A stretch of 47,230 bases of DNA. Origin: Nemertoderma westbladi. Lineage: Eukaryota > Animalia > Xenacoelomorpha. Of this stretch, positions 7,501 through 38,590 are shown in pieces. The first letter of the stretch is position 1. Every line of letters starts with the position of its first letter. Under the pieces are notes generated by a model. The model was not told the origin of the DNA. It did no database searches and saw nothing but the letters and a program-made list of their open reading frames with translations. The position numbers and the translations under genes are program-made. The DNA lies in assembly GCA_032718475.1 (NCBI GenBank), contig JAUCBJ010000509.1, forward strand, positions 1 through 47,230, in the 5' to 3' direction.

Positions 7501-7705
7501 ATAGCTATTGGCTATAGCTCTGGTACAGTGGTAGACTGGTAGTGTGTGTCGTTATGTAGTACCAGTAGGCCTAGTTATCTGTTTATGGCGGGTGTATACC
7601 CAGTACGTCAACGGAATCGGTTGCTACGATTTGGTTATGATGACGGTCACACGAATTCCGATTCCGAATCCTCGAATCCCAGGGATGATGATACCGATAC
7701 CGATT

Positions 7706-8100: not shown

Positions 8101-8124
8101 TAACTATGTACCAGACTATATTTC

Positions 8125-10479: not shown

Positions 10480-11557
10480 CATATAGTGCAGTTCATGATT
10501 GAGTTCAGTTCAGTAGCTGCCCGGACTTTCTGGAATATTTCGATTTTCATAGTTTATGGGACTTGTTGACTTGTATGCTGTAGATTCTACATGCACACAT
10601 TGTGTATAAAATTGTATATATCTACTATAAATCATTTTTTTCATTTCCAACCAATTCTACTATAGACCATTTTTTCATTTCCAATACAATGATGACCAAT
10701 CTACAAGGTTATGTAATTCATTCTGGGGAAAATTTGCCTTATCATACATAGTTCTATCAAATATTTAGCCTCAGTTCCATCTATTTAAATGCATAGGCTT
10801 TTCCTTTTGTTCGGCACAGCTTTGCAAAGTCGGCAATGACGTCCAGGTGGGATCGAACTGGTGACCTCCAGGTTGGAAGTCTGATGCTATTGGCTTTTCC
10901 TGTGAAACGTAATTATAAAAGGGCGGATGCATAACAGAGAATGTATTTTGTATATTGTCTAAAGTGTCACTTGGAAAAATGCGTCTACAATTGGCATGCT
11001 GCATCGCAGCTGCATTATATATTTAGGAATGCTGTGCCGGCTTGTCGATAAAATTGCATCGCCACAACTCCCTATCACCCATAACATTTGCTAGAGAAGC
11101 TGCATCTTCAAGACCGGAGTGCCCTTAAGAGGTGTCTCAAGAAAGTCATGGGTTCTCATGTCTACTATGCTTATTCACTCCATGTCGCCACTAAATCACA
11201 AGATTATGCACTGGCAGGTCCTCATGGCGAAGGCAATGTCATGCAAGAAGGATTTATTCATCACTGCACGAACAATGCAGAGCCGAAGGGCAGAAGTTGA
11301 TTTCCGGAAGAGTGGTGGTGCAGGTGTTCCTGCTCCTTACCCAGCCATGGACTTCGACCTCGCTCCACATACATGATGCAACACAACTCCCAGCAGGGAT
11401 CCCAAACTTCTGTAAACCCCCCCATTTATTCTAATTAACTTGGCAGGGAAACTAGTGCCGAAGTCTTCAGTTTACAAGTTTAGTTTAGGATTCCCATTCC
11501 AGAGGCCGAGGTCCCGGCCATTTATTCATTATTTTGTTAACTTATGACTGCTGAATA
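10480..11557 (+). repeat. Local duplicated segment, copy 1 (continues at 24596-24610 after the BEL insertion); contains an RTE 3' fragment at ~11000-11280 (-)
   Basis: Near-identical to 30388-31359 plus 32923-33015; duplicated short ORFs at 11088/30968 and 11119/30999. Confidence 0.92.
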
Positions 11558-12495
11558 TGTTCGTGCCGCTGACTTTTTCTAACTCACAACGCGATATTTG
11601 TCATGGAGCGATGGTATTTTTACGTTGAGTTGCAATACGCTAATTAATTAGTACTTTAATAGGCTTAATGAATATATGAAGTGTATGTATAGATTACGGT
11701 GCCCGGAATGTAATTGAACCAGACAACAATCGGACACAAAGGGCTGTCAATCACACACAGTGCACTGGCAATAAAGGGCAGAGAACAAATGGCTTGACAC
11801 TCACCGTGTGCGGCAAATAGCTCCCCTTGTTTCCCTTTAATTGTTGAACAACGTCTTGTGTTATATCTTTCTTCATATATTACTTTCAATGCAGATTACA
11901 GTATATACCGTATATATCAAACTTATTATACAGTTAATAATTAATGATTTATAAATACTGCATACATAACTATTAAATTTAGTACTATTTGAACTTAATT
12001 TTATTGCTTTCCTATAGCAACTCTATCGCGTTACGGTGAGGGATAAATTAATAATCACCGCTCAATATTAAACCAAGGCCTTATATACCACATAACAAAT
12101 AGGGATGTCCTATACACAAGTACAGCAGCTGCGATTGCCCTAGAAATTCAACCAATCACAGCGTCAGAAATCTGTAAATCTCATTAACTGCCATCTGGTT
12201 GTTACAGCTGAATCTTCTACAATAAGTAGAATATGAGAAAGAAAAGAAAGCACACAATATAAATTACGTTTCAATAACCTAACCAACCACCAATATGGCC
12301 CTCATGGATTTGCCTTAGGACGGCAGAATATATTAAGTTATTAATAGTAATTAATTCACTGTACCGTAATAGGGGAACATAATCATTGGTGAAATCAGGT
12401 TATGGAATATAAACTAATGAGAGCTTATAACGATATTTAAGATACTGAATAGGGCCTATAACAGATAAACTAAATATAGGCGAGTTTCACCAACA
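11558..12495 (-). repeat. 3' LTR of BEL family 1
   Basis: Direct repeat of 23658-24595 at an exact 12,100-bp offset; 6 substitutions and no indels counted by eye. Confidence 0.97.
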
Positions 12496-12502
12496 CCGCC
12501 CC
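12496..12502 (-). promoter_or_regulatory. Polypurine tract (GGGGCGG)
   Basis: The minus strand reads ttttGGGGCGG immediately before the TGTTGG start of the 3' LTR. Confidence 0.75.
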
Positions 12503-14389
12503 AAAAGGGTTTGTGTGGCATGTCACAAAAACATATAAAATACTACAATTTTCTTAAAACACAAACTCTTTCAAAGAATGAAACAATAGTAAGTCGCCTA
12601 TAAATATAAATCGCACATTGTTGCAAATTTTACTAGTTCATTACTTGCTTGCATGCATAGGTTAAAAATATTTCCATTAAGATATCATAATGTATACTGG
12701 ACAGATTGTACGAAATTGATAATAATTTTTGAGCAATTTAAATACAATAAAGATCAACATCAAACTTAAATCAGTCATTGCTCCAAACTATTTAAATTTC
12801 AGTTACATACATCTGTAATCAACTACATAATAAAAGTATAACATAAAATACTATTCTATAACCAAAGTTAATATACAAGCATAATGAAGCACTCCCAATA
12901 AGTACATTACATATACTGCATAACAATACATATATAATATATATACTAAATAATAAAGCTACCTACATCATTGTTGAATATTGGTTAAACCATCATGGTC
13001 GCAATTGCGAGAACAACGTGGCAGATGCGATCAAAGTTGTGAGAGTTGTAGTCCTGTCGATATTCTCGCGAAATCAGTACATTCGGAGCGACGAACGGAT
13101 TTTTCCCAGTACTAATTTGTTCCGGTTGATCGAGCCGCGATACATCAGTCAACTAGGTATACATCAGTCAACTCCCGGACAAGCCCCCAATTTATCTTTG
13201 AACCAGAGAAGCCCACCAGGTCCCACTCGTTGAAGGCACACTATGGAGTGTGTAACAATCACCATGACATGTTGCCCCACACTGGGCGAGCAGGTATCAC
13301 CGAACATTCTGCAACGTAAATACATTCTTCGGGGTTAACTTGGTACTTTAGAGGGGCATACCGCAAGGCTTATGCCAGACCACCCATTCCCAAACCCCTT
13401 ATTCACCAGTTTCTACTGTAACACTCATAGTTAGAGGATATATATATGAGATGTATATACAATACATGCGCCCCTCCATTACATCACATTCATACAATAT
13501 ACGGTACTGGATTTAATTTGTTGTCTCTGTCTTTTGTGATTTCTAGAATATTTACAGTTGTATATAAAAAAGCATATAAAAACAAGCAATTGGCAATTTA
13601 TATGAATAATGAATATTGGGGGTAAATATTCTAGAGATCGAGCGTAGTTAGAGTCTCGCGTCATTCATTCAGATCTGGAAATGTCCGATTATTGTAATTT
13701 TATATAGAGCCGGGTCTTGAATATAATTTTTAATTAGGTATCACAGCATTCTAACTAGCAAGAAGGAAGTGATAAAAACTCAATAAATCACTTATGATCT
13801 ATCCATACACAAAGTTGCATCCGGTCGTACCGAAATATTAATTTCCTCCGCTCCCGTGACAACTTTAGCCTCATACTTTGATATTTTGTGATTTAATTAT
13901 CTATCTAAACACGAAATAGGCTTAGCTGTCTTGTACATATATTACATATACTATTTACTGAAATGTTCATTCAGAATTATCATCCATTAATACACAAGAG
14001 CCATCATACAACTGGCTGCGCATGCCCACACATACTGGCTCTTTATCATACATACCAGGCTCACAGATACAAACATACATATAAATGATATAACTGAATT
14101 ATACAATCGGTACAATTGAGTACATTTTTATACACAGACATAAATATATACAAATCCCGAGAATCAATACAAGTGCATATGTAATATAAATACTAGTGTA
14201 TCTAGGAGGCCTAATAAGAACATCTAGGAGACCTAATAAGTCTGTAACAACAGTCTGTAAAGAATAATGCAATATGGATTGAATTGTATTGTATGCGGCG
14301 TACTTTACAATTATGCTATAAAGGAATGAATACACCAGTAGCTACTATAGTATGGTAATCTGTGCCATCCTGTATATGTTGTCTTCATC

Positions 14390-15915
14390 TTATTGAGTAT
14401 ATTCGATAATTTCAGGTTTATTTGGTTGTTGTCCATAGTTCTCAGATAGCCCACGGGCTCGTTCCAATAGACATAATCTACCAATAGCTCTGTTGAGGTG
14501 CTGTCCCTGGTCAGAAAGAACTTCTACTTCACGCACCCTTCCATCTTTACCTAGAATTACCTTTGTAATGCGACCAGTAGTCCAATACTTGCAAGGAAGA
14601 TTGTTGTCAACCAGAAGTACCATGTCTCCAACTTGTGCATTCCTCTGTTCTGCAAACCACTTAGTGCGTAAATGAATACTTGGCAAATAATGTTTCTCGA
14701 AGTGAATTGAGAAGCGCTTTGTTAGAAGTTGCATTATACGCCATGTTTGACGGAGGTACTCATCTCCATCAGTGGGTTCACTAATGGGTATCATGGTGAC
14801 CTTTTTCTTCATCATGAAGTGAGCGGGTGTGAGAGACTCTAAAGCGTGAGGGTCGGATGATACAGGCATAAGAGGCCTGCCATTTATGTATGATGCAATC
14901 TCCTCAAAAAGGGTTCTCAGCAATTCATCATTAAGGTATGCTTTACACGGCAATATATGATTCAATGAGATTTTTACACGTCGAATAAGCCGTTCCCAGC
15001 TTCCTCCATACCAAGGAGCATGACTAGGAATAAATTTCCAGTCAGAACCTTTGATTTTGAGAGAATCATCAAGTTGTTGTTGATTCCAGTCTGTTATAAG
15101 TTTTGTGATCTCATTCGAAGAACCGATAAAATTTGTGCCTCTATCTGATCGGACCACTTCGCTTGTTCCATATCTTGCAATTTGCCGTCTGGCATAATAA
15201 AAAACTAAAGGTCGTTCACCATGTCAATATGCACTGCTCGACAAGTCAGACAAATGAACAGTACACCCCATCTCTTTACCAAAGTACGAGCCCTTTTTAC
15301 TTCAATAGGCCCAAATAGGTCGACACCTGTGAAAGTGAATGGGGGTGAGTAACTACCAAGTCTTTCAAGTGGTAAAGCAGCCTCTAATTGTGTCATAGGT
15401 CTACAGTTAATTTTCTTACATGGAATACACTCATTAAGTACAAAATTCAAGGCCTTGCGAGGGTGTACAAAATAATAACGCGTGCGTATTTGATTGATGA
15501 TATATTCTCGACCCGCATGCAATAATGACTTATGAACATCAGAAATTATTTTTGTTTGCACTCTTGTATCATACACTAAAATTGGATACTTAGTGTCAAA
15601 TGAAAGAGGAGCATTGGTCAATCTCCCACCGACTCTAATAAGCCCATCTCTCATTGTGCTACTGTATCGGTTGCTAAGTATAAGGTTTGCATGAGTAAGC
15701 AACTTGTCATAATCATTAAGGTTATCTCGTTTTTCTGTGATACGTAAAAGTTTCAAGTTTGTACAGTCTACTTCTGGCAGAGACATGAATTTTCGTGTCT
15801 GACGTTGATTGTACCAATAGTGGAAGAGTAACCTAAGATAGGTTACTGCACGACATAAGCGGTTCCATGAACTGTAATGGTTGAAATAATTCTCTAATCT
15901 TTGAGAAACACCCAA
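14390..15915 (-). pseudogene. BEL/Pao integrase region, frameshifted near 15200
   Basis: GLIRVGGRL, HKSLLHAG...CIPC (HHCC), GVDLFGP, SDRGTNF, GGSWERLIRRVK, GRVREVEV. Confidence 0.92.
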
Positions 15916-16032
15916 AGAAAGGTCAGGTAGATCCGGTGCATTTGTCCAGAATGTTTTATCTAGAATATCTAGTTTACTACCAGTAAAGGTATTCTGAATA
16001 ATGATATAGTTATTTGAGGAGCCAAGTGAGTT

Positions 16033-17060
16033 TCATAAAAGTTTGGACTTTGAGGGTTTGGATTTTGGCCTGATTATTTCTGCTCCCTTGGCCTGTTCTA
16101 TTTGTTGTTGGCTGAGTTGTTTAGGCCAATTTATTTCAGGTTGTTGAAGAAATTCTGGACCATGAATCCAAGACTCAGTGTGTAACAGCTCCAAAGGAGT
16201 AGCTCCTCGGGATGCAATGTCTGCTGGATTCAGTGGGCCTGGACAATAACGCCACTGTTCCGGCTTTGAAGTATTCAGAATTACATGCCTTCGATTTCTG
16301 ACAAAGACACTAAACTCACATTTACTATTAGTTATATATTGCAGAACCAGTGCTGCATCCGTCCAATAGACAATTTGTTGTAGTTTATATTTGGTTTGTT
16401 CAATAAGATCATTTGCTACAATGGCAGAATATACGGCAGCTTGAAGCTCTGCCTTAGGAATGTCTAATGACTCATGTTTAAGCTTCGCTTTGGCGAAGTC
16501 TAAGGATACTTCGACACCAGTATCATCCTCCTTGCGAAAGTATGCAGTAATACCCATGCCCTGTGTGCTAGCATCACTAAACATATGTAATGCATATTGA
16601 TGGTGGGGTTGAGCATTATAGAAATATTTTCTGGGTATTAATAGCTGATCAATAGCTGGTAATTGCGATTCCCAAGCTTTCCACTCTTTCAATATGACCC
16701 CATCCAAATGGTCGTCCCAGTTTGTATCAAGCTTCCACATTTTCTGAACCAACTGCCTAGCTCGTAGAGTAATAGGACAAATAAAACCCAGAGGGTCAAA
16801 GTTAGAAGACAATATACTTAAACAAATGCGCTTCGTTCTGACTTCCCCACCACGTGGCTTCACTTGAAAGTATAATTGATTTGCCTCAGTATTCCATCGT
16901 AAACCTAGGGTTTTGGTAACAGGCAGAGGCTCTTTAAAAAGATCTATATCAGTGGCAGCCCTGTCGTCTTTCAGAATAGAGGATAGCATTACCTTTGAAT
17001 TACTTACAAATTTAGTAAGCTTAAAACCTCCTAATTTCAGACATTCAAATTGTGCCTTTC
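16033..17060 (-). pseudogene. BEL/Pao RT C-terminus and RNase H-like region, out of frame with the upstream ORF
   Basis: GGFKLTKFVSN, KTLGLRWN, FDPLGFICP, LHMFSDAS, WTDA, NPADIASRG. Confidence 0.92.
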
Positions 17061-20000
17061 GCTGTAACAATTGCTTCCTCCACAGTAGGTTTAGAACACA
17101 AATTGTCATCCATATAAAAATCTTCCTTTATATTGTCAATGACCCCTGGAGGAAACTTCAATTTATTATCATCAGCTGTACTTTGCAGTATGAAACTGGC
17201 ATTTGAAGGACTTGATATTAGACCAAAGGCCTGGATTGTCATTCTATATTGGCGCAATTCGCAAGTTAGTTTACCCTCAGGCCACCACAGAATCCTTAAA
17301 CTATCACGATCAATTTCACATGCCTTCACCTGAAGGAACATTTCCTTAATATCGGATGCAAATGCAATATTATATTGGCGTAGGCGAATTAAAATTCCTG
17401 TAAGAGACCGGAGAAGATTAGGGCCAGACATAAGTTCTGTATTTAATGAATGACCTTTGTACATTGCAGCACCATCTTTAACAACTCGTATGCATCCTGG
17501 TTTATCTTCTCGTTGAATAAAGTGGTGTGGTAAATAATATGTTCTGTTGGTATCTTGAGTATGAGGAGGAATCTCCTCCATATATCCATTTGAAATATAA
17601 TGGTTCATTTTATCGGAATACATCTTGTGTATTTCTTTGTTGGCTAATAATCGACGTTTTAATTGTTGAGCACGAGTTAGAGCCAATGGAAGGTTATTAA
17701 TTAAGTTTGGTTCTTGAGCTCGCCATAGGAGCCCAATTTCATATTTCCCTTCTTCAGGGATAAATCGTCGAGTAGTTTGTTGAATTTGAAATGATCGTTC
17801 ATCTTCCACAGACAGGGTTTTTGCATTAGCGTTATGTTCAAGTTTGTCTTGATCAAGCCAAGCAATAACTTTCTCAGTAAGTCTAAGTTTATTAATAGCT
17901 TCTTCAATCGGTGCTAAAGATTCACAGGTAGAAGGATTATCTAAATGAGTGGTAGAATCATGAAGCAGATTACATAGATGAGTTTGGCATTGAAGTATCT
18001 CTTCCTCGGGCATCAGGCCAATTGGATCAGTATTGGTGCAGCGCAGTGCCTCACTGGACCATTCAACTTCCGAATCAGAACTATCGGAGACATCTTTGGA
18101 AGAACAGGGAATGTCTACTGAATTACCAACTATGTGATCCTTTGCGATACCACGTTCATATAATGTACGTTCTGAGGGCCCAGTACAATACCAGCCCAAC
18201 CGTGTCAGGACTGCATAATCTTGAAGTGGTAATGGATTACTCGGAATTTTGTTCAAGGGTTCAAACACTTCATGCAAGTTTTGTCCTATTAATAAATTAA
18301 TACCTGGATAGTCTACAGCATGATATGGAATCTTATGTTGAAGTGTAAATTTGTCATTCCCCCAATCATAAGGTGTAGATTGACTAGTTTGGAAGTTAGG
18401 AATGACTACTAACCTAGCATGTGGAACAATACCACTGAGCATCCTGTCAGCAGGCAATAAATCTCCTTCATAATAACCTGTTTGTACTGTAGTTTTCCAT
18501 ACATCCATAACACCAGAGAGATTTAACCGTAGAGGTTTCCTAGTTTGCCCTTGAAAAATTAGTTCAGCTAACTCTTTGTCAATAAAGGAAAGAGAGCTAC
18601 CACTATCTAATAGAGCATTTACAGTCACTAGTCCTCTTGTTCCCCTAATTCTAACCTGCAGAATTGGAAACTCTCTTATACGATCTTGACTCTTTGAACC
18701 TGCTGGATGAATCTTAGTATCCTCCTCATAGGTCAATGCTTTATATACATATCGAGAATCGCAAGTTTCTTCATCAGTAAATTCATTTTTCTCAAATTCA
18801 TCAGTATCTATAATATCACTATTGTTAACTGTTTCTTCTACTAGTTCGCATATTTTATGAACCCTATCAAGTGCTGGGGGTGTTTTGTCGACATGAAGCA
18901 AAAGATTATGAGTACCCTTACATTTGAAACATCGTAAAGAAGATCTGCAGTCTAAACGAAGATGTCCCGGTCGCAAACATATGAAACATAAATGATTCTT
19001 ACGAAGGAATTCTCGCCTAGTTGCAATAGAGTCATTTTTGAAAACATCACAGAGGGTTATCCTATGCCCTCTTTTCTTGCATCTAATACAAGGTTCTTTG
19101 CTCATTTTTATGTTATCACCAATGGAGTTAAGACAAGAACCTTCTAGAGTTCCACCATCTATGACATCAGTCAAAAGGTCACTATATGCTTCAGCCAAGT
19201 AATTTGCAATTGCATTATTGATTGGTTTTGATTTATTTTCTATAGATAAATCACGTTGAGGTTTCTTAAAAGGAAACTTTGCTTGACCCTTTGAAGGTTT
19301 GCTATAAAGATTTTGTACACGTCCACCTGCATCATCTTCTGTTTCACCTTCCTCATGTATATCATTTAATTGCATAATATTGTGAGATCGTCTCTTATCT
19401 CTATCCTTCCCAACAGAATGTCTGTCAGCAACCTTATCCTTTCCCATTGAATGTTTGTCTGAAGACCGTTCACGCTCTCTCTTAATAAAGGTTAAGTCAG
19501 TTTCCTTCTGAAGAAATTCGAGAAATTCCTCCATCACTGGTTCACGTCTATGTTTATCACGTGTATAAAGTACAATTTTGTCCCAACGATAACCTATACC
19601 TCCTGTGGGCAGTGCCGCTGAAACCATTCTCACAACCATTGGATTATTATAGGTATCAGATTTCTTCAACCAATCCAACTGGCAACATATGGTTCTCAGT
19701 TCATCAGCATATGCAATTAAATTATCTGTTGTAACCTTACGATGAACTGTCAACTTATCAAAAATCCTCGATGCCAAAGTTGTTTCATTACCATATCTTC
19801 TCTTTAGAATGTCCCATGCATTATCTATACCATTTGGCATACCCCTAAACCCTTCTGCTAATTTCTTTGGCTCACCATCCAAGCTATCTATAAGAAGCTT
19901 CAACCTTTCATTGGCTGGAAGAAGACTGTCCTTAATAGAAGTTTCATAGTGGTCAAGAAAAGGTATCCATTCTAAAAGTTGGCCATTGAATTTGGTAATA

Positions 20001-20482
20001 GTTCCCATCATAAGTGCTTGTCTAGCATCTGAAAAAAAACTCTGCGAAGCGAGTATAGAATTCAACTCAGAAGTCTCATTAATGGGATCATTCGATGGAG
20101 GACGTCGTAAAATTTGGGAAGGGTAATTATGCGCGCCACTACTATTAACATCTGGTAAGGAAGAACATTCTGCTTCTTGATAAATATTATTTATTTTTGA
20201 GGCATTACGAATGGCTGCTTCACCATGTACTGCTTGTGACCTAGATACAAGAGGCTGATTAGTTGCTAAATAATCTTGGCGGATAACCATTTCCTGTTGC
20301 AACTCCTCCAATTTGACTCTGTGTTGTTCTAACTGCTCCAATTGTAAACGATGTTTACCTGCTAGTGAATGGGTTTCTTCCCGTAGACGATCCAGTTTCT
20401 GTGCTTCGCGGTTAGATTCTTGCAGAATGTATATGATTTTATCCTTTTCAACAGAGTTTATCATTCTCAGACAATGTAACAT
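17045..20482 (-). pseudogene. BEL/Pao Gag core, zinc knuckles, aspartic protease and RT (largest open segment, 1145 aa)
   Basis: KFNGQLLEW, three knuckles (CIRCKKRGHRITLC, CFICLRPGHLRLDC, CFKCKGTHNLLLH), ALLDSGS, YYLPHH, SDIKEMFLQV, FYMDD. Confidence 0.95.
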
Positions 20483-21833
20483 TATCTGTCACTGGTGTTT
20501 GAAAACTCCTTGGAGCAAATGGAGGTACCTCCGGGTTGAGGGGCACAGGAGATACTCCTCCAAAGGAGACCCGAGGTATACGAGAAGGCATCATTTTTCC
20601 TGCTGTTGACGAATTTCAAGCCGACTATTAGCCACCACAAATTCAACTTCTTGGTTGGCTTTATCTATTTCACATTCTACTTCTCGCTTAGCTCGTTCTG
20701 CTTCCCGATGAACACGATCTGCTTCATGCTTAGCATCCAGATCAGAAATGGCTAACTCTATCTCTAATGTTTTGTTTAGTGCATCTAATGCTTCTTGTTC
20801 ACATTGCCTGTCACCTTCTTCCATCTGCTTAAATAATTCTTGCACAATATTGTCTGATTCCTTACTGCGTGCATTCAATCCCTTTAACCTGTCTCTCACA
20901 TAAGCTTCACCATGAAAATCAAAGATGGGAGACAAGAACTTATTAATTGTATTATCACCTTCTTCACCTTCATCACCTACTATTTCAATATCAGTTTCAC
21001 ACTGTCTCTTCAGGAAGAATTCCTTGTGCACGAAGATCACCTTTTACGGCTTCTCTAACCAATCCCTCTGTTAATAGTATTGCTGTCTCTGCAATATCCA
21101 CTGTCTTGGACATTAAGCTATCTATTGAGTCCAGAGCTGATTGTGATTCACCACGTATGGCTGCTTCATGAAAGGCAGACAATATTACTTTAATTCTATA
21201 TAGTTTCTCCTTCAGTTCCAAATCTAATTTTTTATACTCTATTAAAGATAATACCGGTACTTCACGTTTACACTTACTCTTCAACTTAGTACAATGGTTG
21301 ACAAACCCTTGCACATAACCACGAATAGTTCTTCCAAACTTAACCCAATTTGAGTAATCCTTAGGTACATTTTGTTCATACAAATGCTCCCAGGTTAAAC
21401 TTCTAAAATCGAAGTACTGGGTAAGTGCTGGGCGCTGAAATTGGGTTAAATTATGTGGGTTATAAACTGGAATATAATTACTTGGCCCTGCAGCGGTGGC
21501 ACTAGGGGTGGTTGCAGCAACAGTGTTTGGAATAGGTACTGCTGAAGCTGTCACTGGAATAGGCCTATTTGTCAGAACTGTATTACCGGTAGTATAAGTC
21601 TTAGATCTAACTACAGTGGGCAATGAGGTAATAATCACGGGATCAGTTATTGGTACTGTTAAGCCTACCGATACTGTTATTGGTACCGGTACCCCAGTGA
21701 TAGTACTAGTGGTTGGAGAGTCAGGTCCTGTGAGATAAGTTTCATCAGGGCCACTATCAATGCCACTACCGGTAGTAGGTGTTTTTGTCTGGTCCAAATC
21801 GTTGTCACTAAGTATAGTTAAATTAGGGTCCAT
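20483..21833 (-). pseudogene. Gag N-terminal region (Thr/Pro-rich, then coiled-coil), broken by frameshifts
   Basis: 278-aa ORF from ATG 21833, an overlapping 149-aa coiled-coil-like ORF, and a third frame reading MMPSRIPRVSFGGVSPVPLNPEVPPFAPRSFQTP that leads into the main ORF. Confidence 0.75.
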
Positions 21834-23642
21834 AATACATTAATATAGTAATACTCTAATACTGCAATAATTTAGACCGACTTACCTGACAGCCTGATGA
21901 TATGGCAGTATGGGATTGGGATATGCAATTAGTGAAATAATATAGAAGGCTAAATTAAAAATTAGGCCTAGATATGTAACAGCATCTACAGACCTACCAG
22001 TGCTGACGTACTGGCTGACTGGTATTAGCAGATTAATGCAGACAGGTGACAGGTCAGGCTATAGCCTGATAGCTGTATAGTCAGTACAGATCTGCAGATA
22101 GTCAGTATAGATAGTACCGGTATCTAGGCTAGGCCTAGACCTAATGCTGTAATAGTATATTACAATAGTAATACAGTATAAATAGGACTGTAAATATTGA
22201 AGTACCGGTACTGAAGTATGGGTACTACTACTACTGTCAGATAGTACTGCAGTAGTTTGGTATTCTACAGCAGCAGTCGGCATCACAGACGGCTGTAGTC
22301 TTCAGTCTGGCAGACAGCAATGGCAGACTGGTTGACTGGGCTGTATACAGATGAGATACACTGCTGTACAGTGCAGCAGTGTTGTACCTGTCTGATTGTC
22401 AGTTTTTGCTGTACAGCCTAAATTAATTGTTAGTCCGGTTACTGCAATTCCTTAGAAGCCTATTTATAGTATTGTATTTAACCGGGCCACTGCAACTCGG
22501 CATGCAGTACAGAAAGCAGTATAAATTGAAATAATAGTTTAGTTTAAACAAGTGCAGTAAAGTTTAATATAATAAGTTGACAAGAGAGTATCTGAAACTA
22601 TTTTATACAGTAAAGTTGTACTGTACAGTATGTATTATTCTGTTATTACGTTTAATATAATCATAATAATCAATATTGACAGCGTAGTACAGTAGATATG
22701 AAAGAAAGACAATTATCAAAACCTTTTGGAACCGAAGTGTGATTCCACTTCCTACAAGTACATGCAGTACGTACAGTACAGTACCTACACTTCTGAAGGC
22801 TGAGACACACGACCTCAATCGAACTGTTTTACTACACCACAGTGTTAGTCAAAACTACAGTATTAGGTCAGTCCACACAAATAATATGCCACCAATATAC
22901 TCCACGGAATTATCTGAGACCGTCAGAAGATTTATTATGTGGGACGGCCATATTAATGCGCAGTGAATTAATGTGTTTCGAAATCTCACCGTTATTTGCG
23001 AACAATACAACCCAGATCCCTAATTGATCAGATCTTGAAACAAAGAAGTTTTGCTCGCGGAGAGTCAAGCTGTTAAAATATGAAAACTCAATAACTTCTA
23101 GATAAAAACTAAGCCTCCGGAGTACGAAGTGGGATTTATCCTATACCCAAACGATTTAATCGGACAACTTAGATAATTATCGAGAACTCCTTTACCAGGG
23201 CGCAGCAGACTATACGGATACAGATCACATGCACCGAATTACAACATCAAACCACGCACTGTCACGAAGCTTATTACTGACATTCATATCACAGCCGACG
23301 GGAATGGACAAGACAAACTGTCGCCAACCTCTCAACAGTTTATCTCAATACACTATAGAGATACGCTAGGACTTATCTGATGCCTATCTCGATTTATAAT
23401 TCTACAGTGCACAGGAAATGTGTAAAATACTGTATATTTTACACCCAGGAATAAGAGTAGTCAAGCCTACGGACACATACAGTAAATTATTTTAAGGTAT
23501 TGTAGAGGCTCACAAACAAATGAAACACTGTACGTTATAATCACATCAGAAATAATACTGTATGTTTATTCCAAATAGTTTGGAAATTTAATCTTGTAAT
23601 TTGCTTCCGATATGAAAACAACAAGTAAATAAATACTGTTGG

Positions 23643-23657
23643 AAGCAATAAAATTAA
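23643..23657 (-). promoter_or_regulatory. PBS position holds a 15-nt sequence complementary to the element's own LTR; no TGG tRNA-type PBS
   Basis: aagcaataaaattaa (23643-23657) is the exact reverse complement of ttaattttattgctt (24095-24109; also 11995-12009). Confidence 0.7.
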
Positions 23658-24595
23658 TGTTCGCGCCGCTGACTTTTTCTAACTCACAACGCGATATTTG
23701 TCACGGAGCGATGGTATTTTTACGTTGAGTTGCAATACGCTAATTAATTAGTACTTTAATAGGCTTAATGAATATATGAAGTGTATGTATAGATTACGGT
23801 GCCCGGAATGTAATTGAACCAGACAACAATCGGACACAAAGGGCTGTCAATCACACACAGTGCACTGGCAATAAAGGGCAGAGAACAAATGGCTTGACAC
23901 TCACCGTGTGCGGCAAATAGCTCCCCTTGTTTCCCTTTAATCGTTGAACAACGTCTTGTGTTATATCTTTCTTCATATATTACTTTCAATGCAGATTACA
24001 GTATATACCGTATATATCAAACTTATTATACAGTTAATAATTAATGATTTATAAATACTGCATACATAACTATTAAATTTAGTACTATTTGAACTTAATT
24101 TTATTGCTTTCCTATTGCAACTCTATCGCGTTACGGTGAGTGATAAATTAATAATCACCGCTCAATATTAAACCAAGGCCTTATATACCACATAACAAAT
24201 AGGGATGTCCTATACACAAGTACAGCAGCTGCGATTGCCCTAGAAATTCAACCAATAACAGCGTCAGAAATCTGTAAATCTCATTAACTGCCATCTGGTT
24301 GTTACAGCTGAATCTTCTACAATAAGTAGAATATGAGAAAGAAAAGAAAGCACACAATATAAATTACGTTTCAATAACCTAACCAACCACCAATATGGCC
24401 CTCATGGATTTGCCTTAGGACGGCAGAATATATTAAGTTATTAATAGTAATTAATTCACTGTACCGTAATAGGGGAACATAATCATTGGTGAAATCAGGT
24501 TATGGAATATAAACTAATGAGAGCTTATAACGATATTTAAGATACTGAATAGGGCCTATAACAGATAAACTAAATATAGGCGAGTTTCACCAACA
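23658..24595 (-). repeat. 5' LTR of BEL family 1
   Basis: Repeat of 11558-12495; minus-strand TATATAA at 24187-24181 and AATAAA at 24105-24100. Confidence 0.97.
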
Positions 24596-25187
24596 GAATA
24601 TATGGCTAATGATTGATTTGCTGATACCAAATATCTGAAAGGCCTGTCTAGGAAAATAAATGAATGCTAAAGTATATTATTTTATTATAAATGTTCAGAT
24701 TTTAGCTAATTATAGGTGGTTATGGCCTGGTTTAGCCAAGTTATAATAGCCCATTATAGATCGTTATAGTCTGTTACACAGTATGTCGTTCTACCTTTTA
24801 GTAAGTACCACCAAGTACCATAAGTTGTTTAGGTAAATGTTGATTTCACACAGTACCGGTAACATGGGGCATTGCGACACATGTTGCAAGTGCGCAACTC
24901 TTTATCGTGTATGAGAAAGATAGTGCATTGTATGATAAGTACTCACCCAAATATCTCTTAAAATTTGTACTGTACTTAGCAAGTACTTTTTAAATGTTTT
25001 TAAATATTTTTTCATAATCTAAATTGTTTTTTTTGTAATCAATATATTTTTAAATTTTTGGCGTCAATGGGGCCTCATATGTAATTAGTTTATGCTATAT
25101 AGGAATTCAGATTTCCTATTTGTCAGGGGGCAACATACAGTTCGATTTGAAGTTTCCATGAAGATGTTAAACTATTACTACTTGCAC

Positions 25188-25385: not shown

Positions 25386-27143
25386 CAGTGGCGGAGATCT
25401 GTATTTGGGAGTGGGGGGGACATAAAGAGTAGGGACTTTTTTATTTACTTTAATTTATTTATTTACTAAAATAACCTTTGTGGGGCGAGCCACAAAGTAA
25501 GCGAGTATGCGTAAAGTGCGTATATTATACAGTATGACAAACAAAAACCATAAATCAGTTTCCAAAAACATTCTTTCGAATTTCAGATTGTTTTGTAAAA
25601 ATACATACAAGTTTTTCAATGTCACAGTGACCTAAAATGTCTTTGTGCACATGACATACAGCTAAGTAGTTAAGCGTTTCTGAGCCATTGTAGATCTTAA
25701 CCAAGTTTTCAATCGGCGCAGCCGCAGGACGGAAAAGCTCCGCTCACATTCGCATGAAGATACTGGGCAAACTAGTAATAGTCTTAGTAAATTAAATACT
25801 TGAGGAAATAGGTTTTTCACGTCTGCTGACATTGCTTTATAAGATGACACAGCTTTACTTAGGGATCTGGATTTGGTAGAATGATTGAACATTTTCAATT
25901 CAAGTTCAAGGCTGTCACCGCTCAGTTCTGGATATTGACTAACAATCTCACGGTTAACTGTCCCAGTTGTTAAACATTTCTCTAACTCGATGTAATTTTG
26001 TATACTACCATTGTTCGGAAAAAATCGGTCATGTAACTCAGAGAGTATGTTATCGATAAATTCGTAGTATATGGTGCGGAAATGCGCCTCTACAGTTAGA
26101 GCCTGATAAGGTTCAGCAGGACCAGTATAACGTCTTGGGGGGCGTCTATTTCTTGGAATCGATAGCGTACTTAATCCCAATTCCTCTAGCTTCGCACTAG
26201 CTTCAGTGAAAACCGCGCTGAATGCCTCCGCTGTTCTCAACCTCTGCAGTTCGTTAACAATCAGAGGGACTGTCTCCATCGTACCTTTAAGAGTCATAGT
26301 GCGGGACTGCAGCGACTTATTAAATTGCTCCATTATAGTTAAGCGTTTTACAGCCAACATTAAAGCCAATAACGATACTAAACTATACTATTGAGTAATT
26401 CGCCCATAACGTAAACCACGGAAAAATAACACTAATACAGTATATTGCATTGTGCCATTTTGTTATCAATATTAGAGGGAATCCCTTCCTATTGTATTGT
26501 ATACATGCGCTCATGGTATACACCAGAGGTCTAGTCAGTCAACCAACAGAATCAACTTACCTTCAATATACTATGTGTCTCCTTGTCTGCGCTACTAATG
26601 AATTGAATGGATACACCCCATGTTAAATAAATACATGTTCTGGAATGAATATTTACAACTTGGCTGCCTCTCACATTGACTACTAAGGGCCCTCATATTT
26701 TGTTTCACTGGAAACAGTTACAGTATGTTAGCAGTAGTTGGATGCCCTGTCCACTCATGGGGCATCCCAAATCCCCAGCCGGCTACGTCAGTTGCCAGAG
26801 AACCAATAGAAACAACTCTCAACTTTAAATTAATTTAAAATTTATAATTCGGCCGGCCACAAGGCCGAGGCCATGATGGCCTTGTTAGCCTAGGCGGTAA
26901 TGAGGCCCTGCTCACATTGAGGCTAGTATACATACATAGAGGCAATAAACCAACGTTGCCATGTTTCATGTATAATTACCGCTATAATGATATTTAACCG
27001 ATAATTGGATCAATTCAACCGCCGGTGGAATCTGGACTGAATGAAAAAACATGTGCTACCTAAATGTGGAAGGGACATTATCATGGATTCTAAAAAGTGG
27101 GGGGGACAATGTCCCCCTCTCCCCCCCAGGATTTCCGCCTCTG
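25386..27143 (-). mobile_element. Internally deleted hAT DNA transposon
   Basis: TIRs CAGTGGCGGA and TCCGCCTCTG; ttggaaa flanks both ends (7 bp of the expected 8-bp TSD); internal transposase fragment. Confidence 0.85.
25662..26369 (-). pseudogene. hAT transposase C-terminal fragment with dimerisation domain (ZMYM1-like)
   Basis: FPQVFNLLRLLLVCPVSSCECERSFSVLR..RRLKTWLRSTMAQKRL. Confidence 0.88.
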
Positions 27144-27299: not shown

Positions 27300-27540
27300 T
27301 ACAAAATACTATTACCAAAAACAGATAGATACAACAAAGTAATGGGTTGCCCACATGTCCACTGGGCAATGACCAGCCCCCTTCACAGTTAATTTATTTA
27401 CTTGTCAATATGATCAATAATATCATGATACTCGCAAACATTAACAGCCTGTTGTGTTTGTATTAGCAGGGCAGGAATTTGAAATAATCCAGACCCAAAT
27501 CCAAGGAGAGCACATCCAGTGATAGATATAGCGAGATATG
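27300..27540 (-). pseudogene. Relic of a fourth SLC18B1-like paralogue (TM10 region plus 3' flank)
   Basis: The minus strand translates LAISITGCALLGFGSGLFQIPALLIQTQQAVNVCEYHD, matching copy A LNISITGCALLGLGCGLYHVPALETQTQMAVNVCGYHD. 27301-27360 matches the 3' flank of copy B (~36570-36628). Confidence 0.88.
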
Positions 27541-28186
27541 AGATAAACCAGGAGATGAATCAGGTAAATATAATACTGCTTAGTTAGGGCGTTACGTTAA
27601 TTACATGCACTTGTATTTCTGCAGTCAAAATATTAAATCTGCAGTAATCTGGTGATCCGCCAGATAATTTGTATATGGTTGATGTTTTGTATAACTTTTA
27701 ATATTAATAACCTGAAATTTTATTTCAAAACATAGTAACCAAAGTTAGGTCAGCTTTGAATAAAGCTATTACAGAGTAACAATACTTAGTCAGTTTCGGA
27801 ATGTACTGAATGAATATTTTCAGACTTAGTTGGTTTTGGGAAATTTTGATTGGCTGATACTATGATAGAAAGATGCAGCTTGAAACTCCGATTCTAGTGA
27901 TATCCATAACTTATTTTTGACCAAAATTTCCGGGCCGCTGTACCGTCCAGATACAAAATTTACTGTCTACCAGGTAAGTATTGACACTTTACTGTATATG
28001 GACAGTTGTTGTAATTTTTTCATTTTGTCCTGTATGTACTTTTCCTGGCTGATGTTGTACGCCACATGAGCATTTAATTACACCGTGTCCCTCTCAGGGA
28101 TATGGAAACTTTGCTTCTTCTGTCTGGTGGAGTAAAAAAAGATTGGGGATAGAGTGATCAACCTTGGGAGATTGAAATGTGCTCTC

Positions 28187-29559: not shown

Positions 29560-31359
29560 GCTATGGAGAGTGTTAAGCGCAAGCAGAACCGTCAGTACAG
29601 GGTCTGTCAATCACACGCTCCGTTCTCTGTCGATTTCTCAACAGAGAGCTAACTGTTCGAATTTATATGCCAAAACAGCAGTAACCAAAACAATAAATCT
29701 GAAATGGCTCCCTAATCTACTTAATATGAGTGCGGATGGCCTTGCACTCGGTGTTCACTTCCCACAGAAATACAGGAAGTTATTGGGCGATGTCGAATGT
29801 GAGAATATTTTATGTTGTAATGGGTTCGGATATTAATTTGCCCTAATGTCGAAACTTGGCCTTATGCTGGTTTAAGCCAGCGACTTTACTACTGCGTTAC
29901 TCTGGCTACCGCTGTACACCTGCTAACCCGCTATTTTCAAATAACCGCCTAGCGTTGGATATTCTAAGGTGTTTCTAAGCGTAATTTACCCAACTATTCT
30001 CCGCTATGCAGCGTACAAGTTCTTAAGACGCTCTTTAACAACACAACATAAAATAACGTTAACACTAATATATGGCGATAGTAGCGCTAAAGGTAGTGTT
30101 AGTGATAGCGCTAGTGTAACGCTAGTGTAAAACACTTAGGCCATCCCAGCTATATGTAGTCTCCCTAGCTAAACCCACTATTTCTACCGTAGTACTGCAA
30201 GGCTGAGACAAAATCTGGATCGTCAGCCCCGGATGCTGTAGTGACGACTGGTCCCCTAACTGATTAGCCCAACCGCAACTTCTGGCCCCCCGCCAGCATT
30301 GCCCCACATTGGATCGTCCACTCCTCCTTCCGTCGCTTCCACAGTGCACCCGCTACGCCTACCGGTACAGTTAGTCATATAGTCGGTCATATAGTTCAGT
30401 TCATGATTGAGTTCAGTTCAGTAGCTGCCCAGACTTTCTGGAATATTTCGATTTTCAAAGTTTATGGGACTTGTATGCTGTAGATTCTGCATGCACACAT
30501 TGTGTATAAAATTGTTTATATCTACTATAAATCATTTTTTTCATTTCCAACCAATTCTACTATAGACCATTTTTTCATTTCCAATACAATGATGACCAAT
30601 CTACAAGGTTATATAATTCATTCTGGGGAAAATTTGCCTTATCATACATAGTTCTATCAAATAATTAGCCTCAGTTCCATCTATTTAAATGCATAGGCTT
30701 TTCCTTTTGTTCGGCAATGACGTCCAGGTGGGATCGAACTGGTGACCTCCAGGTTGGAAGTCTGATGCTATAGCCTTTTCCTGTGAAACATCATTATACA
30801 AGGGCGGATGCATAACAGAGAATGTATTTTGTATATTGTCTAAAGTGTCACTTGGAAAAATGCGTCTACTATTGGCATGCTGCATCGCAGCTGCATTATA
30901 TATTAGGAATGCTGTGCCGGCTTGTCGATAAAATTGCATCGCCACAACTCCCTATCACCCATAACATTTGCTAGAGAAGCTGCATCTTCAAGGCCGGAGT
31001 GCCCTTAAGAGGTGTCTCAAGAAAGTCATGGGTTCTCATGTCTACTATGCTTATTCACTCCATGTCGCCACTAAATCACAAGATTATGCACTGGCTGGTC
31101 CTCATGGCGAAAGCAATGTCATGCAAGAAGGATTTATTCATCACTGCACGAACAATGCAGAGCCGAAGGGCAAAAGTTGATTTCCGGAAGAGTGGTGGTG
31201 CAGGAGTTCCTGCTCCTTATCCAGCCATGGACTTCGACCTCGCTCCACATACATGATGCAACACAACTCCCAGCAGGGATCCCAAACTTCTATAAACCCC
31301 TCCATTTATTCTAATTAACTTGGCAGGGAAACTAGTGCCGAAGTCTTCAGTTTACAAGT

Positions 31360-32922
31360 TGTTCGGGGTATTTCAACTTTTCTTAACGGGAGTTGAATAT
31401 TTTTTGGATTTATTTTAAATGAATATTCCGATATCACTACTGGGTGCGGGAACATAGGATTTGGGCACATTCAATGGACTGGGGGCGATTTATGGGCGAA
31501 TATTGGGGCGACTTACGGGGTACAGGACTCATTTCATGTATTTAAGGGCCAGGGATGGGAGGCAAAGTTAAGCAGTATTCAGGTTTCCCTGATTACTATT
31601 AGGCCTAGCCAACTTCCTGCTGCCTGTAGAGGTGGATTTGGTAACTCGCTAGGTCTAAAGTACAACACCAACAGCAGTTATTACGAGCCTGAATAAGGAC
31701 TCGGAAAGTCTGCTGCTTGTGTCAGGGATTTGCGACGGGAACCGACAGACAGACCTTTAGCGGTCCCTGGTCGCCGGCAGTTAGTACGAGCCTGAATAAG
31801 GACTCGGAAAGCCTGCCGACATACGCCAGGGACTTGCGACGGGTCGAGCGACTAACGGAGGAAGGGTTCGACGACCGGCGTTAGTACGAGCCTGAATAAG
31901 GACTCGGAAAACCACCAACCGTTGGGGCTCACGACGGGCTGACATACCCTTTGCCAAGCCGTGCTGCTTTCCTGATGACCGATCCCTTCGGGGTTCGGGA
32001 AGGGTGGGATGGACACGCAACGTGGTCGAAAGACAAAGGACCGGACCCCACTGGCCTACCGACTGTTCGGAGCAACTTCTCAGCTACCGAAGCGACTACG
32101 AGCCTGAATAAGGACTCGAAAAGTCTAGGTGGTTGGGTCCCTGCGATGAACTGACTGACCCCTAGCCAAGCCGTACCGCTTTCCTGATTACCGATCCCTT
32201 CGGGGTTCGGGAAGGGTGGGACGGACACGCAAACGGGTCCACCGACACGACAGACCCCTAGCCAAGCCGTACCGCTTTCCTGATGACCGATCAATTCGGG
32301 GTTCGGGAAGGGTGGGATGGACACGCAAACGGGTCCACCGACACGACAGACCCCTAGCCAAGCCATACCGCTTTCCTGATGACCGATCCCTTCGGGGTTT
32401 GGGAAGGGTGGGACGGACACGCAACCGGGTCTACTGACTGGACCGACCCTTAGCCAAGCCGTACCGCTTTCCTGATGACCGATCCCTTCGGGGTTCGGGA
32501 AGGGTGGGACGGACACGCAACCGGGTCGACCGACACCGACACTACGGTACCGAGACTAGGACTGAGGGAAAATTGGGGAACATTAGTTAGGTTAAAATCT
32601 GAGCGAACAGTGGGTAATTAAATAATGTACTGTAGGGATTTATATTGTCGTGTTATATTATTGTGAATATTTGGTGTATATTGGTTTGGGGAAGCCCAAC
32701 TTATTCTCAATCAGGATTCAATGTTGTACAAGATTCAACCGTAGGGAAGTTACAATAAAGTATATATCCAACCAATGAAACTTTTCTCAACTGCAATCTT
32801 GTATTTAAGAACGTATTCCTTCTCCACTACCAATATCCGGTGACTGGCCGGAATTCCGTGGTCAAAAAGTTCCGCCTCCAGCATCGGCGTTTTCCCCCAT
32901 GGTGTCGGGAATAACGGCAACA
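31360..32922 (-). mobile_element. Solo LTR of BEL/Pao family 2, 1563 bp
   Basis: TGTT...AACA termini; TSD CAAGT (31355-31359, 32923-32927); empty site at 11475-11479; homologous in inverted orientation to 44392-45719, which leads into BEL pol. Confidence 0.93.
31680..32525. repeat. Internal repeat arrays in the solo LTR: five type-A units (four spaced ~96 bp apart) and four type-B motifs
   Basis: Type A ccaagccgtaccgctttcctgatgaccgatcccttcggggttcgggaagggtggg at ~31950, 32160, 32256, 32352, 32448; type B tacgagcctgaataaggactcg at ~31682, 31785, 31885, 32097. Confidence 0.92.
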
Positions 32923-33019
32923 CAAGTTTAGTTTAGGATTCCCATTCCAGAGGCCGAGGTCCCGGCCATTTATTCATTATTTTGTTAACTTATGACTGCT
33001 GAGTATATGGCTAATATAC

Positions 33020-34211: not shown

Positions 34212-35190
34212 TGCTGAAATAAAAGTAGTGCCCAAATCTAGGATATAATTGCCTGATTGCAGCATAGCACGTAGTATGTAGTTAGATATAGGTACCTAGC
34301 TGGAACATATGAATAACGACGTAGATTAAATGGTATATAAAAAATCTTAATGTTTAAGCCTTTTACATTATAAATAATTCAAGTCCATGTTCATTAAGGT
34401 GGTAGTGTGCCGCCTTACTATAATTATAACTTGCCACCCTAGAGCGGCAGGTTCCGCCATTTACCTAAAACCTAATAACTTTGTTATAATTATTGGAACG
34501 GAAAAATTGAGTTTTCATATTTGAGCAAGCATACATGCTGTTCACCAGGGACTGGGATCGAATCGAAAGTTATTAATGAAAAATTGCGATATCGAATTGA
34601 AAAACGATCATTGTTTCCAATGAATCCAATAATTTGTCATCTTTTCGCAGCACTTTGTAAACTTTGGAATGGATATGTTATTTTTAGCACCAAATATAAT
34701 AAAATTTATTTTTGTGGAATTGCATAATTGTTTTATTCCCCAAGCGAAATATAATCTTATTATAATAGCGATATATCCTGCAGCTGTATTAGAATAATAT
34801 AACTTTGTGCTACATGTTTTTGAGCAAAATCAGTAAATTTTTTTCATTTTTATGCTACTTATTATTATAGTTTCGTCCTTATTGTCATTCAATTATATTT
34901 CTATTTTCCATATATTTGCCTTTGTTTATTATTAGTGCAGCATTGGTTGTTATTGAGAATTATAGGCGGATGGGAAAAATTCAACCAACAATTAGAGCAA
35001 AATGCCATCCAATAAAAATTAAAGGAAATAATATAAAATAAAGTTAGGTTTATTGTTTTGATTAGAAAACAATGCTACTTTCACCCATAATGCTCCATTA
35101 CCCTATAAATTAAATTGTTTAACATGCTAAACAAATAGTTGGTATCTTAGGCCACTTTGCGCTATTAACTCTTTGAAGTTGGACTACAAG

Positions 35191-36505
35191 ATGTCAGAAG
35201 GAGCAGCTTCTGTTATATCAAATGATGAAAACAAATGAAATTCGTGCTAATCAGAATGACCATCAAAAGGGATGGCGATTTTACATGTTGGTGGCCATGT
35301 TGCTGATGTATCAAATGATACCAGGTTGGTGTCATAATCTACTGGAAACATTCTTTCCAATTGTTGTAGAAGAGCGTGGTTGGTCAAAGACTCTGATAGG
35401 TGCATTATTGGCAGTGTTTGCTTTGGTCAGACTTATAATATACATTAGTTGCCCCCATTCTATCAACAATTGGGGAACTCGTATCTCTTTGGGCCTATTT
35501 GGCATTATTGGGGCAGTTTCACAGTTGGCATTTGGGTTTGTAGAATATATTCCATTCAACAACAATAGATTATATATATTCGCTTGTTTTTCTCTACGCA
35601 TTATTGAAGCAGTTGGACTCAACATCAGTTTTATGTATTCATACAGTCTATTGATGAAATTGTGGCCTGCACAAAGAACTTTATTAGCTAGTTTATCAAT
35701 TGTTTGTAGCGCTGTGGGATTCATGACCGCACCAGTTTTTGGATCCACAGTTTTTGTTTCATTGGGTTTTGAGTTCCCATTTATAATATCGGGTTTGATG
35801 TTTCTTATTATCGTCATTTATTGCTGGTTGGAGTCGCCATCTTATATCTATGACAGATGTGAATTGAAAAACAGACCAACTTATTTTGGGCTTCTGACAA
35901 ATCCAGCTATTTCTCTTATATTTATTTTAAATATATCTTCCAGAATAATCTCATCCTTCATTGTTGCAAACTATGCTGCCTACATTAACCACAACTACAA
36001 TGTCAACCAGTACAATATTGGTCGTATCTATATGATATTTCCAGGTATTTATGCTACTACTAGTGCAACAATATCCCTGACAATGAAGAAATTGAAGACC
36101 ATCTTTCCAACTGTATTTGGTGCAATGTTACTAGCAGTGTCAATGCAACTAGTAGGTCCAACAGAGCTACTCGGTTTACCTCATGTTCTCACCATCTCTA
36201 TCACTGGATGTGCACTCCTAGGATTCGGTATTGGACTAATCGATACACCTGGACTGGAGACACAAACAGAACTGGCCATTAATATTTGTGGCTATTGCGA
36301 TAATGTAGATACCAGATCACTTCTCCAACAAATGTATAAAATTGCATTATCTGTTGGAGCTATTATAGGTCCTGTTATTGGTGGATTCTTCAATGATTAC
36401 TTTGGTATGGAACTTGCTTGCTCGTTTCTCAGTTTGTTTGGGTTGCCATTTATCTTCGCTCTGGTTGCTGTGTTCACTTTCAGATGCCGCGTCAGTGAAA
36501 TCTGA
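35191..36505 (+). CDS. MFS transporter, SLC18B1-like (copy B); +1 frameshift after codon 13, main ORF open from ATG 35222 (427 aa)
   Basis: Collinear with copies A and C. The conserved ATG at 35191 reads MSEGAASVISNDENK* (TGA 35236) because of one extra A in 35228-35231. Confidence 0.8.
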
Positions 36506-37469: not shown

Positions 37470-38590
37470 TCACCAATGATAACAGCCAGATGCCTGTCTT
37501 TCTTTTTTGATAACTCTTAAATTATTCTTTATGTGCCAAAATGACTCCATTGTCCTATGACCTTTACGGAACCCATTCTGATTTCCAAGTAGCAATCTCT
37601 CGATAGGATCCCTGATGCGATTTAATAGAATTGTATTGTGTAGCTTTGCTGCAATCGAGATCAATGAAAACGTAAGGGAAAGGCATGGACAGCCTTGAAT
37701 AGGCTTTCCAGGATTTGGAAGTCACCGAGAATTAATCGGAAACTTAAGGTCCGATTATTTAGAGAAGCAGTAGTTCCAGTACTCCTCTACGGGAGTCCAT
37801 GCTGGGCTCTAACTGCTGAGGACACCAAATCTCTGGATGGCACATTCACAAGAATGCTACGCCGGGTTCATTGTGTCAAGTACAATGCACACATCTCCAA
37901 CCAGACACTATATAACATTGGAGGTGTCTCATTGGTTCCCCCAAGCTTGACACTAGAACAAAATCGCCTCCGCTTTGCAGGACATTGCTTTCGCCGTGAG
38001 GACCAGCCAGTACATAATCTTGTACTTTGGCAGCCTCATGGAGTGTATAAGCATGGTGGACAGCCCATGACTTTCTTGAGACGCATCTTAAAGGACACTG
38101 GCCTTAAAGATGCGGATGATCTAGCAAATGTCATGGGTGATAGGGAGTTGTGGCGGTGCAATTTTGTTGACAAGCCGGCACAGCATTCTTAAAAATGCAG
38201 CTGCAATGCAGCATGCCGATCCTAGTAGTAGAGATCAATGACATTCTCCGAAAAGAGCCACATGGTGTTAGGTTGCCCTTCTTGGGAACTCGCACCAACT
38301 TATTTGTTTTCATTTCTTGTGGGACTCGTGTTGTTCTGTACATGTCTACTATGATGGGTTAGATGAGCTTTAAACACTCAGGTATTTTTAAGACCCCAGG
38401 GGGGATACCATCTACTCCACTGGCACGATTCATCTTAATGCTCATTGCAGCAGCCATCACTTCAGCAAAGGAGTTATCGCCAATGGGAATATGAGGGAGT
38501 ACAATCAGTACAGACTTGGACACTTTTACTTCTATAAAGTTGTCAGGCAATATTGAGGAGATTGCAACCATTGAAGCGATCAGCTGGTAA
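37470..38590 (-). mobile_element. RTE LINE RT N-terminal fragment, interrupted by another RTE copy
   Basis: RASGVDGIPPGVLK, VPKKGNL...FRRMSLIS | IAAKLHNTILLNRI...NQNGFRKG. Confidence 0.85.
37668..38230 (+). mobile_element. 5'-truncated RTE insertion, 563 bp
   Basis: KLKVRLFREAVVPVLLYGS..W, RLRFAGHCFRR; tagtagta tail; 11-bp TSD GAGATCAATGA at 37657-37667 and 38231-38241. Confidence 0.9.

Follow-up and report, generated by a model that had tools for sequence, protein, structure and literature searches.

Self-priming, in which the RNA of an LTR retrotransposon takes the place of a tRNA, has been shown for Tf1 (PMC7175516, PMC5443660). In this element, the first 11 bases pair with the primer-binding site (PBS), cleavage by RNase H takes place between bases 11 and 12 (PMC7175516), and the first RNA bases are required as the primer (PMC5445492). 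Self-priming has also been proposed for Tj1 of S. japonicus (PMC4600332) and predicted for Tcn1 and the plant copia lineage TAR (PMC6317226), and hairpin priming is mentioned for chromoviruses (PMC3601003). GalEa elements (PMC5445492) and bivalve TRIM elements (PMC6934838) are PBS-less.

The Belpaoviridae are described by the ICTV as host-tRNA-primed elements of 4.2–10 kb with LTRs of 0.2–1.2 kb and an 18-nt PBS for tRNA-Arg or tRNA-Gly (PMC8742986). The main texts of surveys of BEL/Pao or of mollusc and annelid LTR elements contained no tRNA or PBS terms (PMC554778, PMC3118150, PMC6238403, PMC8556966), and in a further paper the PBS is mentioned only generically (PMC8220671). No description of self-priming in BEL/Pao was found in the literature searched (supplements, Repbase, GyDB and subscription papers lay outside the search). 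The Cer7 element of C. elegans reportedly encodes its own tRNA-like primer, which would be a different mechanism. Here, a BEL/Pao element was analyzed whose primer-binding position is complementary to its own LTR.

Structure of the Element and Its Genomic Context

The element occupies 13,038 bp of the minus strand, from LTR to LTR (24595-11558), within the window, that is, the whole stretch of 47,230 nt that was analyzed. It is a young BEL/Pao LTR retrotransposon that was inserted recently; its two LTRs are 99.4% identical, with 6 differences over 938 bp. Of the structural features of BEL/Pao elements, the following were found: paired LTRs with TG...CA ends, a target-site duplication and a polypurine tract (PPT) (Table 1). 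Pfam domains were arranged in the order DUF1759, Peptidase_A17 (E 3e-40), Integrase_H2C2 and DUF5641, and the element has the BEL-type order Gag, PR, RT, RH, IN; the protease and RT motifs were recognized by eye, and RVT_1 gave no score on the cut RT piece. The Pao peptidase domain PF05380 was present in all 108 of the 108 homologues returned (identity at most 41%), and the element is assigned to BEL/Pao by its proteins. The gag-pol region is broken, either in the window copy or in the assembly.

The leader of ∼1.8 kb (23657-21840, minus strand) and the 3′ region of ∼1.9 kb (14389-12496, minus strand) hold no sense ORF of 100 aa. A Toxin_R_bind_C Pfam match below the cut-off (20.4 vs. 25 bits) over 39 residues of the integrase ORF (14390-15223, minus strand) is most likely noise.

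The insertion lies within another repeat, which is found again elsewhere in the window (10479-11480 resembles 30387-31360, and 11474-11558 resembles 32922-33006), and a related repeat copy shows weak DUF6451 similarity at 37668-38192. Inverted repeat copies at 31419-32922 and 44392-45719 contain internal tandem units of 96–100 nt. Three intronless MFS transporter ORFs, 87–89% alike in DNA, were found at 2152-3468 (minus strand), 35177-36505 (plus strand) and 41821-43161 (plus strand), with a further fragment near 27413-27549, as in a local gene-family expansion. DNA transposase remnants were located at 25662-26387 (minus strand) and 7535-8230 (plus strand), with a hAT dimerisation domain and a weak DDE_Tnp_1_7 match.

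Table 1. Features of the BEL/Pao element and positions in the window.
Feature	Position	Strand	Remarks
Target-site duplication, upstream copy	24596..24600	.	5 bp
5′ LTR	23658..24595	-	938 bp, TG...CA
TATA-like box TATATAA	24181..24187	-	78 nt before the arm
LTR arm (candidate self-primer, 3′ part)	24095..24109	-	LTR nt 487-501; contains AATAAA
Poly(A) addition site on the 5′ LTR	23961..23963	-	3′ LTR equivalent 11861-11863; X4 contig
Primer-binding position	23643..23657	-	lacks TGG; perfectly complementary to the arm over 15 nt, starting directly at the LTR end
Local leader hairpin	23601..23648	-	8-bp stem; overlaps the 3′ half of the PBS; loses to the arm duplex in folding
Antisense-oriented contig	23072..23641	+	23 untemplated A; run X4; ends 2 nt before the PBS
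gag-pol region	14390..21839	-	six ORF pieces; DUF1759, Peptidase_A17, Integrase_H2C2, DUF5641
Polypurine tract (PPT)	12496..12502	-	flush with the 3′ LTR
3′ LTR	11558..12495	-	938 bp, TG...CA; 6 differences vs. the 5′ LTR
Identical arm in the 3′ LTR	11995..12009	-
Target-site duplication, downstream copy	11553..11557	.	5 bp

The Primer-Binding Position Is Complementary to the LTR

Directly 3′ of the 5′ LTR, starting with the first base beyond it (offset 0), lie 15 nt that match the reverse complement of an LTR arm without a mismatch. When the LTR was shuffled with dinucleotides preserved, a complement of at least 14 nt at the PBS position was reached in none of 20,000 shuffles, the best being 13 nt, twice. 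Among 11,132 internal positions this was the sole 15-nt complement of the LTR, the next independent one measuring 12 nt. With one bulge per side, the duplex extends to 21 pairs with −23.3 kcal/mol (24112-24091 with 23662-23641). The initial annotation, which had described a flush 15-nt complement in place of a TGG-type PBS, its bulged extension on both sides and an arm ∼70–90 nt downstream of the TATA-like box, was borne out on all of these points. A start site near 24157 is predicted from this box.

The CCA end of a tRNA pairs with the TGG of a PBS. The first TGG of the leader is located at leader position 85, which precludes binding of an intact tRNA at the LTR border; the window element has no 18-nt PBS for the 3′ end of a host tRNA such as the ICTV profile gives. 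There was no tRNA gene within the 47,230-nt window, and a search of Rfam over 11300-24800 returned no family save one chance-level match at E 0.99. Pattern searches gave 38 matches in viral contigs and 33 in genome contigs, none of which was confirmed.

In each of runs X1–X3, one unbroken contig spans 23000-23751. Runs X2 and X3 come from the same sample, and the window itself may derive from X1; these contigs thus only exclude an assembly error at the junction. Neither the PBS nor the arm was affected by any of the 40 variant rows examined (of 56), and no covariation was seen within the element's own family.

Splice junctions in the element's own LTR were also considered, and none beats or lengthens the contiguous 15-nt match. 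A longer, bulged duplex would result if LTR nt 5 were joined to the nucleotide preceding the arm, but this junction is located upstream of the predicted start, and no splicing is seen there in the X4 contig described below. Apart from this, in U5 (23904-23865, minus strand), a 5′ splice site close to the consensus (LTR nt 692) precedes a pyrimidine-rich acceptor (LTR nt 731) by ∼40 nt; as this pair lies downstream of the poly(A) site, it would exist only in the transcript of the 5′ copy. The 6 nt that follow the 15-nt match (23642-23637) can pair with the 6 nt at the LTR start (24595-24590) and also fit the local hairpin. Such a 6-nt complement resembles the internal complementary region of DIRS elements.

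Transcript Ends and Predicted Folding

Run X4 is filed as ‘DNA?’ and was read as RNA only from two untemplated A-tails, which terminate 2 of the 3 X4 contigs placed on the element. The sense contig (1,646 nt) comprises the 3′ UTR and the LTR, is unspliced across the LTR and ends with 20 untemplated A. Its end, known from one contig of one run, and contigs lose rare ends, is likely to mark the R/U5 border near 23961. Since it lies 134 nt beyond the arm, the arm is inside R and not at the 3′ end of R, and the nearby signal for this end is not the AATAAA of the arm. The initial annotation had expected the arm to be transcribed; this one A-tailed contig supports the expectation for the 3′ LTR copy only. 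X4 has no coverage over 23642-23960, and absence there proves nothing. The antisense-oriented contig ends 8 nt after a plus-strand AATAAA and may be either a real antisense RNA or the product of oligo-dT mispriming on the A-rich strand of the PBS.

Folding of the 5′ RNA was predicted in 30 settings, which combined five trial starts with two ends and three temperatures. In 30 of 30 settings, the duplex retained its 12 inner pairs with a probability of 0.96–1.00, and the arm–PBS duplex dominates the predicted ensemble; the 561-nt fold had a z of −2.67. A conserved U5 terminal hairpin, comparable with the U5-IR-like stem-loop next to the PBS in the Tf1/sushi group, was not evident among 15 LTR ends: z was −1.71 for the last 55 nt of the window LTR and below −2 in 3 of the 15.

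Self-Complementarity in Related BEL/Pao Families

The ORF covering the RT end and RNase H was aligned with 26 homologues, and 79 loci were retrieved from metagenome contigs. Contiguous and GT-AG-split matches to the own LTR were scored at offsets 0–4 past the LTR end. [quoted passage not shown] Pairing of 10–15 nt with the own LTR was observed in 5 of these 9 (L001, 12 nt; L008, 12 nt; L034, 11 nt; L052, 10 nt; L059, 15 nt). When leaders and LTRs were swapped, 3 of 210 pairs reached 10 nt and none of the 210 reached 11 nt, and at least 10 nt were found in 6 of 900 decoy leaders (Fisher p 1.7e-6 against the swapped pairs and 1.1e-8 against the decoys). The control L072 carries a normal TGG tRNA site, and its best self-match was 4 nt. 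In L033, L036 and L050, also of the nine, only 5–6 nt were found, which was not counted as a match; the LTR pairs of L036 (84% identical) and L050 (89%) have decayed, and L033 gave an 11-nt match only once its LTR end was reset from its sibling L035.

Among loci with inferred ends, L004, L011, L065, L031 and L028 showed 10–11 nt across introns of 164–426 nt (L031 and L028 were first spotted by eye and scored afterwards). A blind scan of 33 further loci, comprising 2,787 sites and having no null of its own, yielded 6 matches, four across introns (L017, L020, L035, L054) and two contiguous (L012, L026); in many of the 27 negatives, the LTR is represented by a short end only. The 33 loci remained after 21 of the 79 had been excluded as already scored, tandem or rearranged, and 25 for lack of a 5′ end. 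A match in L029 (9+2 nt) was set aside as probably due to chance, and no self-match was found in L044 and L069.

Every match starts 0–4 nt past the LTR end, which is where the PBS must be, and no TGG was present within the first 12 nt of 16 of the 17 leaders listed, the exception being the control L072. The paired sequences differ between families, which indicates that the pairing is kept and not the sequence. The initial annotation had proposed looking for conserved pairing in related BEL families, and the complement was indeed kept with different letters. Its suggestion of tRNA-independent priming in a BEL/Pao lineage thereby gains comparative support from families that keep a complement between the PBS and the own LTR, from which we infer the priming itself. 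Among the contigs and relatives analyzed, none of the observations that the initial annotation had named as refuting its idea was made. In L033, L034, L035 and L026, the 5′ LTRs end with TA instead of CA, and the self-complement is retained. The distance from the TATA-like box to the arm was 78 nt in the window element, 31 nt in L001 and 133 nt in L059 (in the remaining 8 of 11 listed LTRs, no TATA-like box was identified), so that the arm need not be the first RNA bases, unlike in Tf1.

In most relatives, pairing is obtained only when the LTR sequence is joined across an internal GT-AG splice junction. L001, L008, L059 and L052 match their own LTR only across introns of 71–77 nt, and the match of L034 is contiguous. 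The locus L026 (6924-7206) is without exactly the 168-nt GT-AG LTR intron of its sibling L028 (7566-8083), and this absence makes its arm contiguous, as in the window element. It is either a genomic copy that has lost the intron or a spliced transcript, and the junction exists either way.

The spacer of 0–4 nt that separates the duplex from the LTR end is mirrored, in several families, by the nucleotides that follow the PPT and precede the LTR. The spacer is an exact inverted copy in L001, L008 and L034 and is absent on both sides in the window element and L052; L004, L017, L033 and L059 show the symmetry imperfectly, and 5 others gave no clear picture. This symmetry would be consistent with the duplex marking the true cDNA end. 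In a quick tree of 104 rows, built without references for the named clades (BEL, Pao, Tas, Suzu, Sinbad/Sailor, Dan, Flow), the window element formed a long branch (1.92; best identity 43%) in no strongly supported clade, outside the strongly supported group that contains the insect rows and the TGG control L072. The relatives therefore show a recurring trait and not a proven shared descent.

Proposed Mechanism and Alternatives

The complementarity is a real feature and would represent a known mechanism in variant form within a family defined as tRNA-primed. The best reading is Tf1-like self-priming, likely with the element's own RNA instead of a tRNA. In its specific form, the arm copy of the 5′ R would probably fold onto the PBS, be cut at the 3′ end of the arm and prime minus-strand DNA synthesis. 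The predicted pairing would span a loop of ∼440 nt; by analogy with Tf1, a cut immediately downstream of the arm, probably made by the RNase H of the element, would free a 3′-OH for extension into U5. If the TATA box sets the start, the paired arm would be ∼50 nt inside the transcript, unlike in Tf1. Splicing of the LTR intron would be needed to create the arm in most relatives, and in the family of the window element this intron would have been either lost or never present. We lean towards the wider view that a broad BEL/Pao branch dropped tRNA priming and takes the primer from its own LTR transcript, mostly assembled by the spliceosome across the LTR intron, the spliced form having become fixed by intron loss in families like that of the window element.

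Instead of the 5′ end in cis, a self-primed element could use the 3′ R copy as the source of its primer, or a short LTR-only transcript that runs from the start to the poly(A) site near 23961 and acts in trans. The identity of the arm in both LTRs and its position within the transcribed 3′ end would suit such a source, and a polyadenylated 5′ LTR transcript of ∼200 nt is plausible. With the arm 134 nt from the observed 3′ end, a cut would still be needed, and the retention of introns in daughter LTRs would be simplest if the 5′ copy were spliced and the 3′ copy served as the unspliced template; we regard this source, the main variant of the proposal, as unlikely. The same distance disfavours the extreme 3′ end of R as primer, which the initial annotation had listed among the possible sources.

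Priming by a host RNA (a tRNA half, a mitochondrial tRNA or another small RNA), with the LTR arm only guarding or opening the site, appears improbable. Half-tRNA priming is known in Ty1/copia lineages (PMC6317226), and the site is A/T-rich. Against this, the site varies by family and tracks the own LTR, often across a splice junction, a pattern that a fixed host primer would not yield, and a TGG near the leader start is confined, among the 17 leaders listed, to the control L072.

It is quite improbable that the duplex is regulatory only, whether it masks the 5′ poly(A) signal, as had been suggested as an alternative, or acts in dimerisation, packaging or 5′–3′ pairing. The arm does contain AATAAA, and its partner is present only behind the 5′ LTR. 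The masking reading is nevertheless disfavoured by the sole A-tailed sense contig, which passes the unmasked 3′ arm before it ends, and by the relatives, in which AATAAA or ATTAAA occurs in the arm of 0 of 10; a purely regulatory duplex would also leave the element without any primer site.

A primer from a leader-local structure, similar to the conserved hairpin that replaces the PBS in fungal GalEa elements (PMC5445492), or from an antisense RNA with its end at the PBS, is very improbable, even though an 8-bp leader hairpin overlaps the PBS and the A-tailed antisense contig ends close by. Stems of at least 8 bp were found in only 2 of 17 leaders vs. 157 of 3,000 random leader-sized windows, so a GalEa-type Conserved Hairpin Site was not found among these leaders, and the pairing probability of the leader hairpin was at most 0.04 when the arm was present. 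The antisense end is A-tailed, falls short of the site and may reflect mispriming. Finally, a chance match or a one-off inverted duplication in the window copy, for which the A/T-rich sequence and the broken pol might speak, is largely refuted by the shuffles and by the same arrangement in relatives; the junction also lies within one unbroken contig in each of X1–X3, and this reading is hardly credible.

If self-priming by the own LTR transcript holds true, the BEL/Pao branch would represent a third, independent use of the mechanism, after Ty3/gypsy and the predicted case of plant copia, and would explain BEL elements without a detectable PBS. If the primer depended on splicing, retrotransposition would be coupled to host RNA processing, and the 5′ and 3′ LTR copies would be functionally separate. 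Moreover, the signature is easy to score in assembled animal genomes, and exact coordinates are available for primer mapping.

Comparison with Known Systems

The window element shares its LTR pair, gag-pol domain order, PPT and LTR length with the Belpaoviridae as defined by the ICTV (PMC8742986). It differs from them in its size (13.0 kb vs. 4.2–10 kb) and in having no PBS for tRNA-Arg or tRNA-Gly. Like Tf1/Tf2 of Schizosaccharomyces pombe, Tj1, Tf1/sushi and Tcn1 of the Ty3/gypsy group, it has no tRNA site and a PBS complementary to its own LTR transcript (PMC7175516, PMC4600332 and PMC6317226). It is not a member of that group, given that its domains are those of BEL/Pao and not of a Ty3/gypsy (chromovirus) polyprotein, but it may function in a similar way. 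The duplex comprises 15 perfect nt (21 with bulges) vs. 11 in Tf1, and the arm is probably inside the transcript, whereas that of Tf1 consists of the first bases of the mRNA. In most BEL/Pao relatives, unlike in Tf1, the arm spans a splice junction. Cleavage at the duplex end is known for Tf1 and would occur in the window element by analogy. In the TAR lineage of plant Ty1/copia (Houba, Osr-1), self-priming has been predicted from sequence only (PMC6317226); as this lineage is outside the Tf1 group, the trait can arise in another superfamily. The fungal GalEa copia elements resemble the window element in having no PBS at the expected position (PMC5445492). They have a conserved local hairpin and no LTR complement, whereas in the window element and its relatives it is the LTR complement, and not a local hairpin, that recurs.
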